From the NCBI RefSeq assembly GCF_044324875.1, contig NZ_CP172185.1: a stretch of DNA of 64,000 nucleotides. One strand, given 5' to 3'. A program made the translations under genes and the position numbers. This stretch comes from Escherichia coli (GTDB lineage Bacteria; Pseudomonadota; Gammaproteobacteria; Enterobacterales; Enterobacteriaceae). The notes beneath the pieces are model-generated. The model was not told where the DNA came from. It saw only the letters and a list, made by a program, of their open reading frames with translations, and did no database searches. Positions 869-8,026 of this stretch are shown one piece after another. The stretch's first letter is position 1. Every line of letters starts with the position of its first letter.

Positions 869-958
869 GGAGAGATGCCGGAGCGGCTGAACGGACCGGT
901 CTCGAAAACCGGAGTGGGGGCAACTCCACCGGGGGTTCAAATCCCCCTCTCTCCGCCA
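869..958 (+). tRNA. serU: tRNA-Ser (anticodon CGA), 90 nt, long variable arm
   Basis: GGAGAGATGCCGGAGCGGCTGAACGGACCGGTCTCGAAAACCGGAGTGGGGGCAACTCCACCGGGGGTTCAAATCCCCCTCTCTCCGCCA. Anticodon stem CCGGT/ACCGG with loop CTCGAAA gives anticodon CGA. The variable arm differs from the attR copy by two compensatory changes. Confidence 0.9.
898..958 (+). repeat. attL core: 61 bp 3' portion of tRNA-Ser, directly repeated at 47168..47228 with 2 mismatches
   Basis: GGTCTCGAAAACCGGAGT[G/A]GGGGCAACTC[C/T]ACCGGGGGTTCAAATCCCCCTCTCTCCGCCA occurs at both ends of the phage-gene block. Integrase gene lies immediately inside. Confidence 0.75.
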
Positions 959-2297: not shown

Positions 2298-4751
2298 TTA
2301 AAAATCAGCCTGATTCGGGATCAGTTTTTGTATAGTGGCTGTTACGTATTTTGCCTGGTGAAGAGCGTCATCCAGAGCATTATGGCGCACGCCTTCGAAT
2401 GGAATTACGCTTCTGGCATTGAAGTCTGTGATTTTCCCCATCTCAACGATTGTGCGTACATCACGATCGTTGCTGTAATGCCACGGACAGGGGATGTCCA
2501 GACGTTCGTATGAGGTGCGCAAAATTGCGTTATCGAACGTTGCGCCATTACCCCACACCTGAACGAATTTTTCATCAGAGTGTTCATTGACGAATTGCCG
2601 AAAACGCAAAAGGGCATCTTTCATTTTTACCTGGTCAGTTAAAATGGCAGCTCTGGCTTCGCTGGACTGCTTCAGCCACCATTCGATGGTGCCACCATCA
2701 GGAACAGCCCCTGTATTCATTGCGTCAGTCAGGCTGATAACGATATAAAATACCGGCCCGATTTCCCCTGTTTCCGGGTCGAAGAAAACCGCACCAATAA
2801 CTACTATGGGTGCATTGGTGTTGGCTCCCATTGTTTCAAGGTCGACTGACAGGTGATTCCATACTCTGCTGGTGGATGTGATTTCACGATGACCGTTCAT
2901 CTTAATTAAGGAATTTTCTGTTTCGCCAGTTTTATTATCGCTGGCGTGGCCCTGAGCGCCGCCAGTGTTCTCCTTGTGCGGATGCTCAGTGCCTTCCGTT
3001 TCCTCCGGATTTTTTTCCTGAGATTCAGCCTGATTTTCTCCATTGAATGTTTCCTGGTATGTTGCGTCACCCATTACTGAGCCACAATCAGGGCAGTTGC
3101 CGCCGCTGGTCTGACCGCAGGCGGTGCAGACTTTTTCCGGTTCCTGTTGCGCTACTGGCTCAGGTTGTTTCGTTTCTGGCTCGTTTTGTAACGCATTTTG
3201 GCTGTTTTGTTCCGCTTTCTGGTCGTTCTGTTCCGTTTCTTGCTGGTTCTGGTTCACTGAATCGCGAGTCTGGACTCCCTTAACCCATTTCAGATCATTC
3301 GGGTCGCTAATCCCTTCAACGAACTCACCACGCGAGGCCGCCAGTAATTTGTCTGCATCGACAGGATTTTTGGGCGGAATGTTTTTCCTAGCTTCATGGA
3401 GTTCTGCCCGCAGTTTCTGATATTTCGCATCAACAGAATTCACCTGCGGCTGAGCATCCAGCGGCTGCGTGTCCGGATGATGTTCAGTTGTATCCGGTTC
3501 CACTGTTTCAGTCGTTGGCTGTTCATCTGCCATTGCGCCAGACGGTTGCGGTTTTTCTTCATCATCCTGTTTTCCTTCTTCTGTTACACGCTGCGGCATT
3601 GGGGCAGAGGAACGACCGCAGGCAATATCCACGATTTCCGGATCAGGGTTGGCATGATCGGTTTCGGTCAGCACTTTATTCAAGTATTCGGTGACGCGCT
3701 GGGGCATAGCCTCTATACCAACCGGTGCTTCTTTCACGGAGGCAACCACGATGGCGCGGGAATAATCCATCCCGCCTGGCATGTTCAGAAAAGCCTTAAG
3801 GAAGACGGAGAAACAGGGATCATTTTCTGCGATAATTTCGTTAACACGTCTGGTATGTGAAGGATGCATGTTGTAAATATCCACATCCATCGAACGAGCC
3901 AGTTTTCCTGTAGCAACATCGAATGCCATTGACGCATTATCATGCACAAAACCTTCGCCGCGATCGGTAAGAATACCGCCGCCAGCGTTAGCGCCGGATG
4001 GTGTGCGACTGATGCGAGAAACACGATTTCCTTTCATCCACTCTTTTGTAAGCAGACCACGATCAGTGTAGTCAGCGTCCAGGTATGCTTCGATGAAGGA
4101 GGTCATCAGTCCCAGGTCTGAATTTACGGGGGCGGGAAAAACTTTGTCAGTGTCCCGCACCAGTTTGTACAAATCCCGAATCTCCAGCGGTTCGAGTTGC
4201 GCTGCTTTATTTGAGATGGCCAGCGCGGTAACGGCGGGAAGTTTTTCTTCCTGTGCGTTATGTAATGAGCGCAGTTCATCCCGCGAAACGTGCGTTACTG
4301 GTTTTTCGCCGCCGTGTTGCGCCAGCCAGCGAACAGGCAGAATCTGACCTGAAACCGGCAGAAGCATATTCTCCTCAATCTCAGTCATGTCTTCGCCATT
4401 AACATTGGTGTTGTCAGTGCTGGCTGGTTTGTCCTGCGCGGATGGCGGAGGCGCGATAAATATCATTGTGATGCCATCTTCGCCGCCTTTTTCATACCGG
4501 TTACAGAATTCGGTATCAAACACGCCTTCCGGTGGAAGGTCATCAACAACGGGCAAATGGACGCGAACAGGTTTTTTAAAGTCGTCTTCATCATAATCGT
4601 TATCATCCATTGCGGTAATGCAGCGGGAGATGGCAACAGATAATTTTTTTGCTGTAGTCCAGTAAAAACCACCTTTAATCCCAAGGCGTTTTCTGACTTT
4701 GTCATTTTTAGCTTCGCAATATAGCGCAAAAGTTTCTTTATCAGTGCTCAT
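2298..4751 (-). CDS. Large exonuclease with C-terminal DnaQ-like (DEDD) 3'-5' exonuclease domain; the type often annotated exodeoxyribonuclease VIII in E. coli prophages
   Basis: 817 aa ORF. C-terminal region has DLETMG...H...D motifs typical of DEDDh exonucleases. Central acidic/Gln-rich low-complexity region and an internal CxxC...CxxC zinc ribbon ([16 protein letters not shown]). Confidence 0.75.
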
Positions 4752-5137: not shown

Positions 5138-5692
5138 CTATTTAATACTCAGCAACTGCTCGACGGTCATATTTTTAATTGCGCCCCGGTTTATGAGAGT
5201 CCATCCCTGCTTTTCCAGATAAAAACGGAAAGTATCCAGAGTACAGACCAGTGCGCCATCAGGAACTGTTTCGGTGAATTTGATGTAGCCGTGTTCGTCG
5301 AAGCGGATAACCAGGGTGCGGCCATCACCCGGGATTATTTTGTCAGCGGGTGTGGTGTTATTCCGGCGCAGTTCTTCCTCCATGCGGTCGAACTCGGCAA
5401 TGTAGGCTTCCTTGAATGCAGCGGCCTTTTTGCCCGTGAAGCCCATCACAAGGAAAACGAAGCCGTTTTTGGTGATTTGGTACATTGGGAGTTTGCGTCC
5501 TGTTGAGTCGGTGTATTCGCTCGCCTTAAAATTAAGGGCAGTGAACTCAGCGGAGCAGTCCAGTAATTTTATTTTTTGGATAACATTGTCGTGACGCTTG
5601 CCAAAGAATTCCGCGATCGCAACAGACGTAGTGACAGCGCGACCATTTTCAATGGTTACGTCAGGGTGAGAAAGGGTAAGGGTAGTAGCCAT
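5138..5692 (-). CDS. Phage regulatory protein, Rha-like (185 aa from internal start)
   Basis: Track ORF 5138..5989; the ATG at 5692 is preceded by GGAGG with 8 nt spacing. Sequence from MATTLTLSHPDV...AIAEFFGKRHDNVIQKIKLL resembles the Rha family. A terminator-like hairpin sits inside the upstream extension. Confidence 0.65.
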   Translation of the reverse strand: MATTLTLSHPDVTIENGRAVTTSVAIAEFFGKRHDNVIQKIKLLDCSAEFTALNFKASEYTDSTGRKLPMYQITKNGFVFLVMGFTGKKAAAFKEAYIAEFDRMEEELRRNNTTPADKIIPGDGRTLVIRFDEHGYIKFTETVPDGALVCTLDTFRFYLEKQGWTLINRGAIKNMTVEQLLSIK

Positions 5693-5860
5693 AATGGCAG
5701 CCTCCACGTTGAGTATTGATAACTCACCACCGAGGCTTTCCACGACCATAATGGTGGTGAGACGTACAGGGGTGGAAATACCGGTCAACGTAGAACCCGG
5801 CCAGCCTTGCGGCTGCCCTGCACGCCCCACCATAATCTGAATGTGGCTGTGCTTCACGCA

Positions 5861-5884
5861 TAAAAAAACCGCCTGAGCGCGGTT
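5861..5884 (-). terminator. Rho-independent terminator-like hairpin on the minus strand
   Basis: Minus-strand AACCGC-GCTCAG-GCGGTT followed by a T-run; lies between dicF and the Rha-like gene. Confidence 0.5.
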
Positions 5885-6167
5885 GTGCGCTACGTTTGAC
5901 TTCGGGTTTCCACGCCCGGCACCCGGTTTATGAGGTGCAGGTGCACTATAATTCCACCCGTACTGGTTTTCAATAGCTACATTCAACATTTTCTCTTACC
6001 TTTCATCACCGAAGTGAACTTTGTTGATGCGGTGCCAGGTGCCTCCAGGTGACGTTAACCAGTTAACAATTAACGCCGGATACAGAGAATCCACCCATAA
6101 CTCTGTTTTTGGTTTTAACTGTTCCACGTGCGATCAGCCGCATTCACCACATCACAAAATTCACTTT

Positions 6168-6225
6168 AAAAAGGGCGGCAGAGCAGTCACGGAGTAAAAC
6201 TGATACCGCAAAACGTCACCAGAAA
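6168..6225 (-). ncRNA. dicF: DicF sRNA homolog (ftsZ-targeting sRNA of Qin-type prophages)
   Basis: Minus strand reads TTTCTGGTGACGTTTTGCGGTATCAGTTTTACTCCGTGACTGCTCTGCCGCCCTTTTT, nearly identical to the recalled K-12 DicF (one difference) and ending in its own terminator. Lies downstream of a DicA-like repressor as in Qin. Confidence 0.7.
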
Positions 6226-6480
6226 ATTGATAACAGATGGCGTTGCAGCGGGGTTGTCACTCAGGCGCATGGTCAACCTGACAACCCGGTGTCCTCAAGG
6301 GGAAGGGAACCCCGCCATGCTTACCGCCGCGCCATTTCGCGGAGTGCCACAACCGGAAGCGGACGGTCGACGAAAATTTAACGACAGGCTATATATGAAC
6401 CAGCTACCTCGCCGTGCGCTTTCGTGTTGTGTGCCTGCTTTTAACCACGTCAGGCGAGGTGGTATCCTCTGAGGGGTCTG

Positions 6481-6837
6481 TTACCCGAGAGGAAATTGGT
6501 TATGAATACAATCAAGTTTTCTTGCCCAGAATGTGGTGGCGAAGTCTTCGACACATCCTTTAAGCCGCAGGGCTCTGACAGTTTCGCGGGAGCCATCTGC
6601 AAAAATTGTGGTCACCTTGTAACTGAAGATGAGTCCTCGCAATTCGATGAGGAAATCGTTGACAATATCTTCGGTGTAATCACCGGAGCCTTTCTGAAGT
6701 AAAGGCACATACCGCTTAGTTACCGCTCTGATAATTCTTACCTGCCCGGCAATGGCGCTGATGTCAATATAAAGCGCCATTGCTGCTTCTTTGCCGATCC
6801 CGGGATGCCTTCCATTCTGATGTTTGACTTCGCCCAC
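6481..6837 (-). CDS. Hypothetical protein (118 aa) in leftward operon orientation; overlaps the antisense zinc-ribbon ORF
   Basis: GTG start at 6837 preceded by AGGA at about 7 nt; first ORF after the 7066..7096 terminator. No recognisable domain. Mutually exclusive with 6502..6702. Confidence 0.3.
   Translation of the reverse strand: MGEVKHQNGRHPGIGKEAAMALYIDISAIAGQVRIIRAVTKRYVPLLQKGSGDYTEDIVNDFLIELRGLIFSYKVTTIFADGSRETVRALRLKGCVEDFATTFWARKLDCIHNQFPLG
6502..6702 (+). CDS. Small zinc-ribbon protein (66 aa), antisense to the early-left operon
   Basis: MNTIKFSCPECGGEVFDTSFKPQGSDSFAGAICKNCGHLVTEDESSQFDEEIVDNIFGVITGAFLK has two CxxC pairs about 25 aa apart and an acidic tail. ATG at 6502 preceded by GAGAGGAAATTGGTT. 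Confidence 0.4.
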   Translation: MNTIKFSCPECGGEVFDTSFKPQGSDSFAGAICKNCGHLVTEDESSQFDEEIVDNIFGVITGAFLK

Positions 6838-7065
6838 TGAGAAATCCTCTGTTTCCCCTTAACGCCGGGGTAGCGGAACAAAAACCTGCTGCATAGTTAA
6901 AGTTAAACCCTGCCGTCATGTTCATACGCCTCGGGCTGGCTACTTAACCCCTGACCACTGCCTGGTAACTCGAAGTATTGCCCTGCGTTCTGTGGGGCGG
7001 GGTGGGTTGGTGAAATTAGTTTATACAAAAATAAACTTAACAGTCAATCTGCAACTTAACTAAAC

Positions 7066-7121: not shown

Positions 7122-7406
7122 TTATGTTACAGGGAACTGTCGGCGGGTATGGACTACGTTTACTATTTCAATACTTGAGGTTGTCACGCGGTACAGAATT
7201 ATATAATTGGGGTGAGCCACAATCTCACGTAAGCCTGGCACTCTGTCGCTTGGGGGGTATAAATACGGATGTTCGGATAATGGCAGCACACACCCCCTTA
7301 ATCGCTGCCATAAGCGTTCTGCCGCATCTATGTCGAAACGAGCAATGTAACTAGTTATATCATCCAGGTCGGTATCTGCGCTTTCAGGCCATAACACAGG
7401 TAACAT
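7122..7406 (-). CDS. parE: ParE/RelE-superfamily toxin (ParE2-like) of a three-gene TA cassette
   Basis: 94 aa. N-terminal LWPESADTDLDDITSYIARFDIDAAERLWQRL and C-terminal IVAHPNYIILYRV fit the ParE pattern. Start abuts the stop of the upstream antitoxin. Confidence 0.8.
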   Translation of the reverse strand: MLPVLWPESADTDLDDITSYIARFDIDAAERLWQRLRGCVLPLSEHPYLYPPSDRVPGLREIVAHPNYIILYRVTTSSIEIVNVVHTRRQFPVT

Positions 7407-7598
7407 TTACTGTTCACTCCGTTCCTTGCGTATTTTAGCAAAGCGTTCTGCCATTCTGCGCTCAACTTCGTCATGGGGAATTGCTGGGCGCGGATCTGCA
7501 AGGCTTGCAGCTACTTTGGCTCGCAGCCATTCGTTGTAACTGTTTTCTTGTTCAATAGTTTCAAACTCAGAAACCATTGGTGAAAGGGCCGTATTCAT
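7407..7598 (-). CDS. paaA: PaaA2-like antitoxin (63 aa)
   Basis: ATG at 7598 preceded by GGAGG. MNTALSPMVSEFETIEQENSYNEWLRAKVAASLADPRPAIPHDEVERRMAERFAKIRKERSEQ resembles the recalled PaaA2 antitoxin of O157 prophage three-component systems. Confidence 0.7.
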   Translation of the reverse strand: MNTALSPMVSEFETIEQENSYNEWLRAKVAASLADPRPAIPHDEVERRMAERFAKIRKERSEQ

Positions 7599-7627
7599 GG
7601 CACACCTCCGTCTGTGTATGGTGGTCA

Positions 7628-8026
7628 TTATGCCCGATGCCCTTTCCGGGCAGCGAGCCATCTTTCAATTGTGCGATCCATTAACTCTTTTTTGTCTTTC
7701 ATCTCCTGAAGCATTTGCTCTTGATCTTCCTCTGGAAATGCCTCAAATGTTTGAAGTAGCTCCTTTTGCCTAGGAGTTATTTTTATTATATCTTGTATTC
7801 TGTCATTTTTTTCTTCATTTAACGGTAAGAAGAACCAATACTGAGGATATCCTGTTGCTTCAGATAGTTTATCTAGATTAGCTGCTGTAGGGCTTGAGAT
7901 ACCACAAACCCATCTTTGAACGGATTGTTGAGTAATGCCAATTCTGCGCGCAAGTTCTGCCTGGCTCCAGCCTGTTACCAACAAAAGCTTCCTAATTCTA
8001 AGAGCACTAATTTCGAGTACACCCAT
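7628..8026 (-). CDS. paaR: PaaR-like HTH regulator (DicA paralog); start uncertain (track ORF extends to 8101 from TTG)
   Basis: XRE-type HTH (GWSQAELARRIGITQQSVQRWVCG). C-terminal LTPRQKELLQTFEAFPEEDQEQMLQEMKDKKELM is paralogous to the C-terminus of the adjacent repressor. Sits directly upstream of the antitoxin-toxin pair. Confidence 0.6.
   Translation of the reverse strand: MGVLEISALRIRKLLLVTGWSQAELARRIGITQQSVQRWVCGISSPTAANLDKLSEATGYPQYWFFLPLNEEKNDRIQDIIKITPRQKELLQTFEAFPEEDQEQMLQEMKDKKELMDRTIERWLAARKGHRA

Follow-up and report, generated by a model that had tools for sequence, protein, structure and literature searches.

A probable nested antisense gene pair in the early-left region of a lambdoid Escherichia coli prophage, with signatures of selection on both reading frames

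Introduction

Can a few hundred nucleotides (nt) of prophage DNA encode one protein on each strand, or is only one of two overlapping open reading frames (ORFs) a gene? This question is raised by a locus at positions 6481-6837 of a 64-kb stretch of Escherichia coli DNA (64,000 nt of contig NZ_CP172185.1, hereafter the window), where a plus-strand ORF for a zinc-ribbon mini-protein of 66 amino acids (aa) lies wholly inside a longer ORF on the minus strand. The region studied is the early-left arm of a Rac/Qin-like lambdoid E. coli prophage, in which transcription runs on the minus strand, and the nested pair is located between DicF (6173-6224, minus strand; 67 bits in Rfam) and a ParE/RelE-type toxin-antitoxin pair (7122-7661, minus strand). 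An initial annotation, made from the letters of the window, had placed the pair between these two features, had described a 66-aa ORF with two CxxC pairs and a ribosome-binding site opposite a 118-aa ORF that also has one, had pointed out that a plus-strand gene would run against the early-left operon, and had concluded that only one of the two was likely to be real. The description is borne out in each of these respects; the conclusion is not supported by the comparisons reported here.

The databases are themselves divided over the locus. RefSeq, through the Prokaryotic Genome Annotation Pipeline (PGAP), annotates the plus ORF as 'ECs_2282 family putative zinc-binding protein', and the depositors of phage genomes (vB_EcoS-640R1, Evi and the PPompW/Stx2a phages) annotate the 118-aa minus ORF instead. 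Since RefSeq and phage GenBank entries each report one, different gene, each of the two proteins is absent from half of the databases.

Results

Our comparison of the locus with its relatives shows, as judged from substitution patterns, that both frames are under purifying selection and are co-inherited across several enterobacterial genera. The zinc-ribbon gene runs on the plus strand from ATG 6502 to a stop codon at 6700-6702 (66 aa, or 68 aa if counted from TTG 6496), its Shine-Dalgarno (SD) sequence GAGAGGA (6487-6493) lies 8 nt 5' of the ATG, and its product carries the motifs CPEC (residues 8-11) and CKNC (residues 33-36). The long ORF covers 6481-6837 on the minus strand, with 118 aa from GTG 6837 and AGAGGA 7 nt upstream; its shorter form extends from ATG 6780 to the stop codon TAA at 6483-6481 (99 aa). 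The two frames are exact codon-for-codon reverse complements, with plus position 1 facing minus position 3 and the second positions facing each other. This codon-aligned antisense register is where 'shadow' ORFs are commonest. With the 38 ORFs of at least 200 aa within the 64-kb window as a baseline, the register was stop-free by chance for 66 codons in 27% of sampled windows and for 99 codons in 17%, a baseline that applies to each lineage separately. The overlap alone, in a single sequence, is within chance, and conservation of both frames across diverged relatives is, on the comparisons that follow, beyond it.

Protein searches and look-ups yielded DNA for more than 100 loci (given L numbers below), representing about 11 diverged lineages in all when phages HK639 and KP12 are counted. 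Nine are closer clades: E. coli (including intermediates with a long-protein identity of 72-81%), Klebsiella/Citrobacter, Enterobacter-like, K. michiganensis, C. freundii and four metagenomic or viral types, namely L107, L108-110, L111 and a Serratia-like type known from proteins alone. In every clade with DNA, the zinc-ribbon ORF has exactly 66 codons and its four cysteines, and the long ORF is open opposite it in the same register. The deepest comparison among the closer clades (the window versus L107 and L108) has 60-61% nucleotide identity over the overlap, with protein identities of 44-50% for the zinc ribbon and 36-39% for the long protein. Remoter pairs were found by tblastn in three phages: HK639, which is lambdoid, and KP12 and ST899-OXA48phi17.1 of Klebsiella. 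HK639 has a 73-aa zinc-ribbon-like ORF antisense within HK639_45 and KP12 a 63-aa zinc ribbon within KP12_367, both in the same register and with the four cysteines kept. Profile comparison recovered the zinc ribbons of HK639 and KP12 with 97.7% probability (E 2e-12 for both), KP12_367 matched the long-protein profile with 89% probability (E 2e-6), and HK639_45 matched it weakly (11% probability, E 0.003); these profile matches support homology of the remote pairs. Both long counterparts match phrog_29546. Protein, profile and tblastn searches found no homologue of either protein without its partner. A genome contig scan with the zinc-ribbon alignment returned two unrelated and uninformative loci, namely a spurious match and the zinc ribbon at the N-terminus of a Bacteroidota membrane protein of 371 aa, and a viral contig scan with the Serratia-like variant P0043 gave no usable locus.

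The plus-strand product is a member of NCBIfam family NF047912 (ECs_2282_CxxC), which it matches over residues 4-56 with 57.1 bits (E 1.2e-15; cut-off 37), and it resembles the N-terminus of phrog_4852 (E 1.5e-9). C8, C11, C33 and C36 are invariant in an alignment of 12 diverse sequences, and zinc binding is predicted. Purine-rich SD-like sequences precede the ATG at the same site in other clades, and within E. coli the ratio of nonsynonymous to synonymous substitution rates (dN/dS) of this ORF is 0.16. Structure prediction of the zinc ribbon, which the initial annotation had suggested, was made with AlphaFold2 and gave a predicted local distance difference test (pLDDT) score of 66 overall and 77-83 for the two knuckles. 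The Lar restriction-alleviation family (TIGR03655) and the YnfU family (NF038384) are alike in size, in their two CxxC knuckles and in their lambdoid early-region location, which is a generic zinc-ribbon pattern; both were rejected as identities for the protein, with 16.2 bits (E 0.01) against a cut-off of 39.6 and 11.4 bits against a cut-off of 36, respectively. The initial annotation had raised an anti-defence role as a possibility; PADLOC-DB 2.0 held no meaningful match to the zinc ribbon, the best being PDC-M14A (E 0.0015, 16.9 bits). A probable role for the zinc ribbon is that of a small factor that binds nucleic acids or proteins.

For the long ORF, ATG 6780 (99 aa) is more likely to be the start than GTG 6837. 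The 118-aa ORF matches phrog_21318 with E 2.2e-61, its residues 20-117 aligning to profile positions 1-98 of 99, and an alignment that begins at this internal methionine supports ATG 6780. The site is conserved outside E. coli as M-[TI]-T-L-x-V-D-x-S, preceded there by good SD sequences (GGAGAGG, GGAGG, GAGGTG). The possible N-terminal extension (6781-6837, minus strand), of uncertain coding status, is open in every E. coli copy and missing from other clades; its dN/dS of 0.58 (P=0.06) is about equalled by a second frame. Because the extension is specific to E. coli and lacks a clear coding signal, we downgraded the GTG start, though without rejecting it. Upstream of the conserved start the frame varies among relatives. 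In Citrobacter freundii (L099-L101, 3995-4519) the long ORF is fused in frame to an upstream ORF, giving 174 aa in total; in L111 the same upstream ORF closes with two stop codons right before the conserved methionine; and in the Enterobacter-like clade (L082-L087) the frame is open upstream as well, across a KCKSCG motif.

AlphaFold2, run on an alignment of 14 sequences, predicted a helix-helix-strand-strand-helix fold for the long protein with a pLDDT of 83.8 and a predicted template modelling score of 0.70. Foldseek against AFDB50 returned models of its own family alone, with template modelling scores of 0.96 for E. coli A0A244BD86 and 0.90 for Serratia fonticola A0AAJ1YL78; our model and the AFDB models share the same fold, so that independent predictions agree on an orphan fold. 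No structural match outside the family was found in PDB or BFVD by Foldseek, no Pfam or NCBIfam match was found for the ORF, and the 99-aa protein had no match in PADLOC-DB 2.0. An exhaustive profile search of 1.84 billion representative proteins gave seven clusters, all of the protein's own family. The long ORF was intact in 47 of the 47 distinct E. coli sequences of a first survey and in every diverged lineage; two copies (L185, L186) carry a 1-nt frameshift that breaks both frames, and no other broken long ORFs were found. Moreover, it is co-directional with the surrounding operon in all nine of the distinct contexts. In E. coli this is the early-left operon; in Klebsiella/Citrobacter the ORF comes between cro, which directly precedes it, and the replication genes; several other contexts have it downstream of cI; and in HK639 and KP12 it follows pL and putL and kilA, respectively.

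We examined selection on each frame by OLGenie-style counts, in which changes in the overlap of 14 sequences were classed by their effect in both frames; as in all the selection tests reported here, the sequences were short and the models simple. The rate of changes nonsynonymous in both frames (dNN) was 0.11, that of changes nonsynonymous in the plus and synonymous in the minus frame (dNS) was 0.33, and the reverse (dSN) was 0.56, giving dN/dS values of ~0.20 for the plus and ~0.34 for the minus frame, both with bootstrap P<0.0005. Minus-synonymous sites are slower than minus first-position sites, which is incompatible with the minus frame alone being coding. Rates were also compared by codon phase. 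In the stretch that is coding on the minus strand only (6703-6780), minus position 3 evolves faster than position 1 and position 1 faster than position 2 (0.41, 0.30, 0.23). Where the frames overlap, the rate is lowest at position 2 (0.10), and at both 'wobble' phases it is depressed (0.23, 0.31). Over plus codons 50-66, a weakly constrained tail, the two outer phases evolve at equal rates (0.41, 0.45) above a position 2 of 0.14, a symmetry that is predicted by neither single-gene model. Individual columns point in both directions. The plus-frame Cys, Phe and Asp columns are kept although their wobble changes alter the long protein; arginines of the long protein at two columns (opposite plus codons 22 and 46) are kept via four codons while the opposing zinc-ribbon residue varies (P/S/T and S/A/T); and fourfold-degenerate plus codons are frozen in all clades, namely P9 CCA opposite Trp, and G37 GGT, V40 GTA and T41 ACT opposite Thr, Tyr and Ser of the long protein.

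Simulations starting from a consensus ancestor, with difference counts matched per lineage across six lineages and 600 runs, gave a consistent picture. Under plus-frame selection alone, none of the 600 runs kept the minus ORF open in all six lineages, and the minus omega came to 1.15, with a minimum of 0.80; the observed value is 0.65. With selection on the minus frame only, the plus ORF remained open in 0.3% of runs, the four cysteines were kept in none of the 600, and the plus omega was 0.77, against 0.36 observed. The two-frame simulation came nearest to the observed values. As a more conservative test, we permuted changes in four phylogenetically independent pairs, fixing the number of synonymous changes and reshuffling their identity: plus-synonymous changes were milder for the minus protein than random ones (P<0.0002; P=0.026 with an alternative pairing), and the reverse test, of minus-synonymous changes on the plus protein, gave P=0.064 and 0.0014. 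Outside the overlap, the 26 codons of the long ORF have no stops, a dN/dS of 0.37 (bootstrap P<0.0005) and the lowest value of the six frames; codons 13-26, which are clear of the terminator hairpin described below, give 0.30 (bootstrap P<0.0005).

On these sequence comparisons, both single-gene models are rejected by the substitution analysis, the simulations and the permutation. The separate check of conservation and dN/dS in each frame that the initial annotation had proposed thus finds both constrained. The case that it had named as refuting, in which relatives conserve only the minus frame and break the CxxC motifs, does not occur, the four cysteines being invariant in every lineage; its view that only one ORF is likely real runs against a minus ORF that is intact in all lineages, carries a coding signal outside the overlap, has a confidently predicted fold and is never kept open by plus-frame selection in the simulations.

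The zinc-ribbon gene appears to carry its own transcription signals. Inspection of the sequence suggested a plus-strand promoter at 6440-6468, with a -35-like TTTAAC (6440-6445), a 17-nt spacer and an extended -10 element TGgTATCCT (6460-6468), from which the transcript is predicted to start near 6475. Most diverged clades retain the motif TGGTAT(C/T)(C/T)T 5' of the zinc-ribbon ATG, and the Klebsiella/Citrobacter clade has GGTATATCCT. Downstream, RNAfold predicted an intrinsic terminator of the plus-strand transcript at 6747-6795, consisting of a 13-bp stem (6747-6759 with 6773-6785), a 13-nt loop and the U-rich CUUCUUUGCC at 6786-6795. Its hairpin, of -26 kcal/mol in the window, is found in nearly all clades and overlaps the start codon and the first ~11 codons of the long ORF. 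The consensus comprises 8 pairs over 13 sequences, one of which is compensatory (UA in 6, CG in 5); another pair is G.U on the plus strand in 9 of 13 and would be a C.A mismatch on the minus strand, and this strand-specific wobble argues that the hairpin acts in the plus RNA. T-runs follow the hairpin in several clades (T8 in L094, T5 in L098 and L099). The predicted plus transcript of ~320 nt (~6475-6795) would be complementary to the long ORF from end to end (6481-6780), start codon included, and to its SD region. With a predicted promoter and terminator of its own the zinc-ribbon gene looks autonomous, in keeping with the inserted accessory unit that had been supposed at the outset.

Two further sequence features lie at the 5' end of this unit. 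An inverted repeat, GCCTG-N13-CAGGC (6433-6455), overlaps the -35 element of the predicted zinc-ribbon promoter and is present in most clades; in L108 both arms are altered together (GCCGGG...CCCGGC). It may serve as an operator; alternatively, it may form a hairpin in the 3' untranslated region (UTR) of the transcript that carries the long ORF. A hairpin in the 5' UTR, in which CCUCU would pair with AGAGG of the SD sequence, was rejected, because a start near 6475 would put its 5' arm upstream of the transcript.

The pair appears to travel as a short cassette. Megablast against 5426 complete E. coli genomes found 857 with at least 80% of 6300-7000, and many of the others match 6300-6468 and 6854-7000 alone, with ydfA/ydfB/ydfC annotated in between; the flanks are common to thousands of Qin/Rac-like prophages that have these genes at the cassette position. 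The approximate limits of the cassette in E. coli are 6432-6879, the span that the PPompW phages match.

Discussion

We consider it probable that the locus is a mobile nested antisense gene pair of ~450 bp in which both proteins are maintained. The long gene would have no promoter of its own and would be read within whichever phage early operon hosts the cassette, here as the first gene after a pL-like promoter. The zinc-ribbon gene would be a small unit in itself, with extended -10 promoter, SD sequence, ORF and intrinsic terminator (~6475-6795), and would converge head-on with early-operon transcription. Because the zinc-ribbon mRNA would be complementary to the entire long ORF, including its ribosome-binding site and start codon, the two would be expected to antagonize each other's expression, possibly through transcriptional interference, RNA duplex formation or occlusion of the long-ORF start. 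In a repressed prophage the zinc-ribbon unit would be able to run, and upon induction the early operon would fire and the long gene would be expressed. We put forward more tentatively, as a proposal that could well fail, that the locus is an old, horizontally mobile 'gene within a gene' whose embedded mRNA doubles as a full-length antisense regulator, so that the cassette would act as a switch between the prophage and the induced state.

Several observations count against two maintained genes with signals of their own. A generic promoter scan did not call the zinc-ribbon promoter, whose -35 element matches the consensus at 3 of 6 positions, and in the window the terminator loop is long (13 nt) and the U-tract modest. 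When E. coli copies are taken by themselves, the long ORF has a naive dN/dS of 0.78, which is not significant, and set beside the 0.16 of the plus ORF it indicates that recent constraint is clear for the zinc ribbon only. The independent coding signal of the long ORF rests on a short stretch of 26 codons, half of which doubles as terminator hairpin. The simulations assumed a star tree, uniform codon choice and allowed-residue sets, and the two-frame model also fails to match the observed values exactly. The zinc-ribbon ORF carries the nonsense change E14* (GAA to TAA) in 16 of the 87 sequences analysed, all of them from IMG/VR and falling into five haplotypes (L061, L062, L067, L068 and L073, in which the long ORF stays intact with a change of Phe to Leu), and E44* in one locus (L080); these alleles imply that the zinc ribbon is dispensable in some, possibly cryptic, prophages. 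Finally, a survey of enterohaemorrhagic E. coli lists in a supplementary table an embedded EDL933 ORF matching WP_001092153, and that table is a BLAST of all embedded ORFs, carrying no ribosome-profiling signal (bioRxiv 10.1101/2020.11.18.388249).

A rival explanation is that the zinc ribbon alone is real and the long ORF is a 'shadow' ORF picked by gene callers that favour long ORFs. In this register antisense stops arise from TTA, CTA and TCA sense codons only, openness over 99 codons is within reach of chance at the 17% estimated above, PGAP picks the zinc ribbon, the ratio of the long ORF in E. coli is 0.78, and many plus-synonymous changes alter the long protein; the overlap also makes remote similarity of the long protein dependent on that of the zinc ribbon, and the HK639_45 match reached a probability of only 11%. 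We nevertheless regard a shadow ORF as unlikely. The frame is open in ~11 lineages and all intact E. coli copies, which plus-only simulation did not reproduce once in 600 runs, and past the end of the zinc-ribbon ORF it continues for another 80-100 nt, up to a start that is conserved in position and preceded by an SD sequence; this stretch has a dN/dS of 0.30-0.37. Plus-synonymous changes are biased towards conservative changes in the minus protein, fourfold plus codons are frozen, the fold is predicted with a pLDDT of 84 and recurs in AFDB, and the ORF follows the operon direction in 9 of 9 contexts. The opposite possibility, a real long gene and opposite it an ORF that arose by chance and bears its two CxxC motifs by coincidence, seems to us barely tenable. 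Invariant cysteines and a length of 66 codons persist in the nine closer clades down to 44% identity, for which the wobble position of opposing Thr/Ala codons must stay A; dNS is 0.33 against a dSN of 0.56, with a dN/dS of 0.16 in E. coli; under minus-only simulation the ORF survived in 0.3% of runs and the four cysteines in none of 600; and the ORF has a conserved predicted promoter, SD sequence and terminator of its own and a score above the NF047912 cut-off. What speaks for it is that phage depositors annotate the long ORF only, that the long ORF fits the operon direction, and that some E. coli prophages carry nonsense alleles of the plus ORF.

The locus might instead be a module like type I toxin-antitoxin systems or OOP, in which the plus RNA silences a harmful long gene in the lysogen and the peptide is a passenger. 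The predicted plus transcript, with a predicted promoter and terminator of its own, would span the long ORF, its SD sequence and its start, and E14* spares this RNA, truncates the peptide and persists in several haplotypes. The cassette of Klebsiella/Citrobacter, right after cro, is moreover in the position of cII, which in lambda is the target of OOP RNA. The zinc-ribbon peptide is under clear purifying selection, however, and hence is no passenger, and nothing marks the long protein as a membrane or nuclease toxin: its predicted fold is of a soluble alpha/beta kind, and no match to a toxin family, Pfam, PADLOC or a known structure was found. We judge such a module improbable, and return to the pair of maintained proteins in what follows.

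Embedded antisense genes have been described in E. coli O157:H7 by the Neuhaus/Scherer group, including ano/ECs2385 (PMC5960689), three further pairs (PMC9927249) and the survey cited above. As in those cases, a coding ORF here lies (almost) fully inside an annotated gene of the opposite strand, and annotation pipelines keep one of the two. The O157:H7 cases are mostly young and narrowly distributed, and are supported by RNA-seq and Ribo-seq. The case for the present pair, in contrast, would rest on co-conservation across genera, on selection in two frames and on a conserved predicted promoter and terminator of the embedded gene. OGC51 of the survey was considered as a possible counterpart and is a different locus. 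A literature search on ECs_2282, the protein accessions and the PHROG and NCBIfam identifiers found no paper.

Antisense RNAs of phages offer another comparison. Lambda OOP against cII, P22 sar against ant, and RalR/RalA of Rac involve cis-antisense RNAs that are non-coding and overlap their targets partially. The predicted zinc-ribbon transcript would share with them its short length, its own promoter and intrinsic terminator, its place near the immunity region and its complementarity to a gene of the early operon; unlike them, it would span the entire target and encode a conserved zinc ribbon, and its regulatory effect is here a supposition. SgrS/SgrT, RNAIII/hld and SR1/SR1P are dual-function RNAs that act in trans on distant targets through short, imperfect pairing. 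The zinc-ribbon RNA would be similar in that one short RNA would both pair with regulatory effect and carry a small ORF, and different in that its pairing would be perfect and in cis.

Both families have already been catalogued separately, by NCBIfam and PHROGs. NF047912, of which the plus ORF is a member, is an entry without a function and is silent on the antisense nesting of every member examined here; PHROGs 21318 and 29546, which match the long ORF and its KP12/HK639 counterparts, have no function assigned and were built from deposited gene calls. What is new is that the two families form one locus, that they co-diverge, and that the embedded gene has signals of its own. The locus is an unusually well-conserved variant of a known and contested class, the antisense overlapping genes. 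Long antisense overlapping coding genes in bacteria and phages are disputed, and most proposed cases are young, poorly conserved and based on expression data alone. This locus gives the opposite kind of evidence, in that the two proteins have diverged together, to ~35-45% identity and beyond that in HK639 and KP12, with both frames, their starts and the predicted promoter and terminator of the embedded gene preserved. If confirmed, it would rank with the most deeply conserved antisense dual-coding loci so far known from bacteria or phages, and would be a clean model of two proteins sharing one stretch of DNA. It is also testable: the cassette is short and is carried by 857 of the 5426 E. coli genomes, phage HK639 is cultivable, and a natural nonsense allele of one partner is available. 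In HK639 the annotated pL promoter and putL antiterminator RNA are followed first by HK639_45 (pair at L190, 2462-3027). The HK639 pair occupies the place that N has in lambda and nun in HK022, and for this first position of the early-left operon antisense coupling, if real, would add an element to the control of lambdoid induction.

Additional observations

Minus-strand transcription in this arm proceeds towards decreasing coordinates, from the repressors to the exonuclease gene. By coordinate, the exonuclease gene (2298-4751, minus strand) is followed by a kil-like gene and a Rha-family gene on the minus strand between it and DicF, and two cI-like helix-turn-helix genes, also on the minus strand, lie beyond the toxin-antitoxin pair. 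The toxin (94 aa) and antitoxin (84 aa) encoded at 7122-7661 separate the repressor genes from the putative pL, a position corresponding to that of rexAB in lambda, and are followed by a clean terminator-like hairpin with a T-run (7096-7076, minus strand). Other copies of this prophage type (L090, L092, L094) have HigB or another ParE in this place. A consensus scan gave a sigma-70-like sequence, TTGACT-18-TAAACT, at 7047-7018 on the minus strand, which would be the early-left (pL-like) promoter reading into the long ORF; promoter-like counts around it are no higher than in shuffled sequences, and its position, the sole argument for it, is weak alone and fits the pL of HK639.

The blocks flanking the cassette (6300-6468 and 6854-7000) are conserved in more than 4000 E. 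coli genomes regardless of the genes between them, which suggests regulatory or RNA-processing sequence, one block being the leader after pL and the other the region upstream of DicF; Rfam at its gathering threshold gave no match in either. DicF itself is intact, and the adjoining dicB is annotated merely as a partial pseudogene in a near-identical genome (L001, 4721-4795), implying that the prophage retains the small RNA without DicB. Rfam matches to the C4 antisense RNA (78.6 bits) and isrK (67.1 bits) at 5750-5938 on the minus strand lie within the ORF at 5138-5989, in the 5' third of the 283-aa Rha-family ORF, which PGAP annotates at full length and whose N-terminal ~100 residues do not look protein-like. 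Either the true start of this ORF is further downstream, perhaps near MATTLTLSHPDV, or the arrangement is an immunity region resembling the c4/antirepressor type of P1. Near the left end of the window is a tRNA gene (869-955, plus strand; 57 bits in Rfam). In the near-identical genome, integrase and excisionase genes lie just past the exonuclease gene on the tRNA side, and the tRNA gene may therefore be the attachment site of the prophage.

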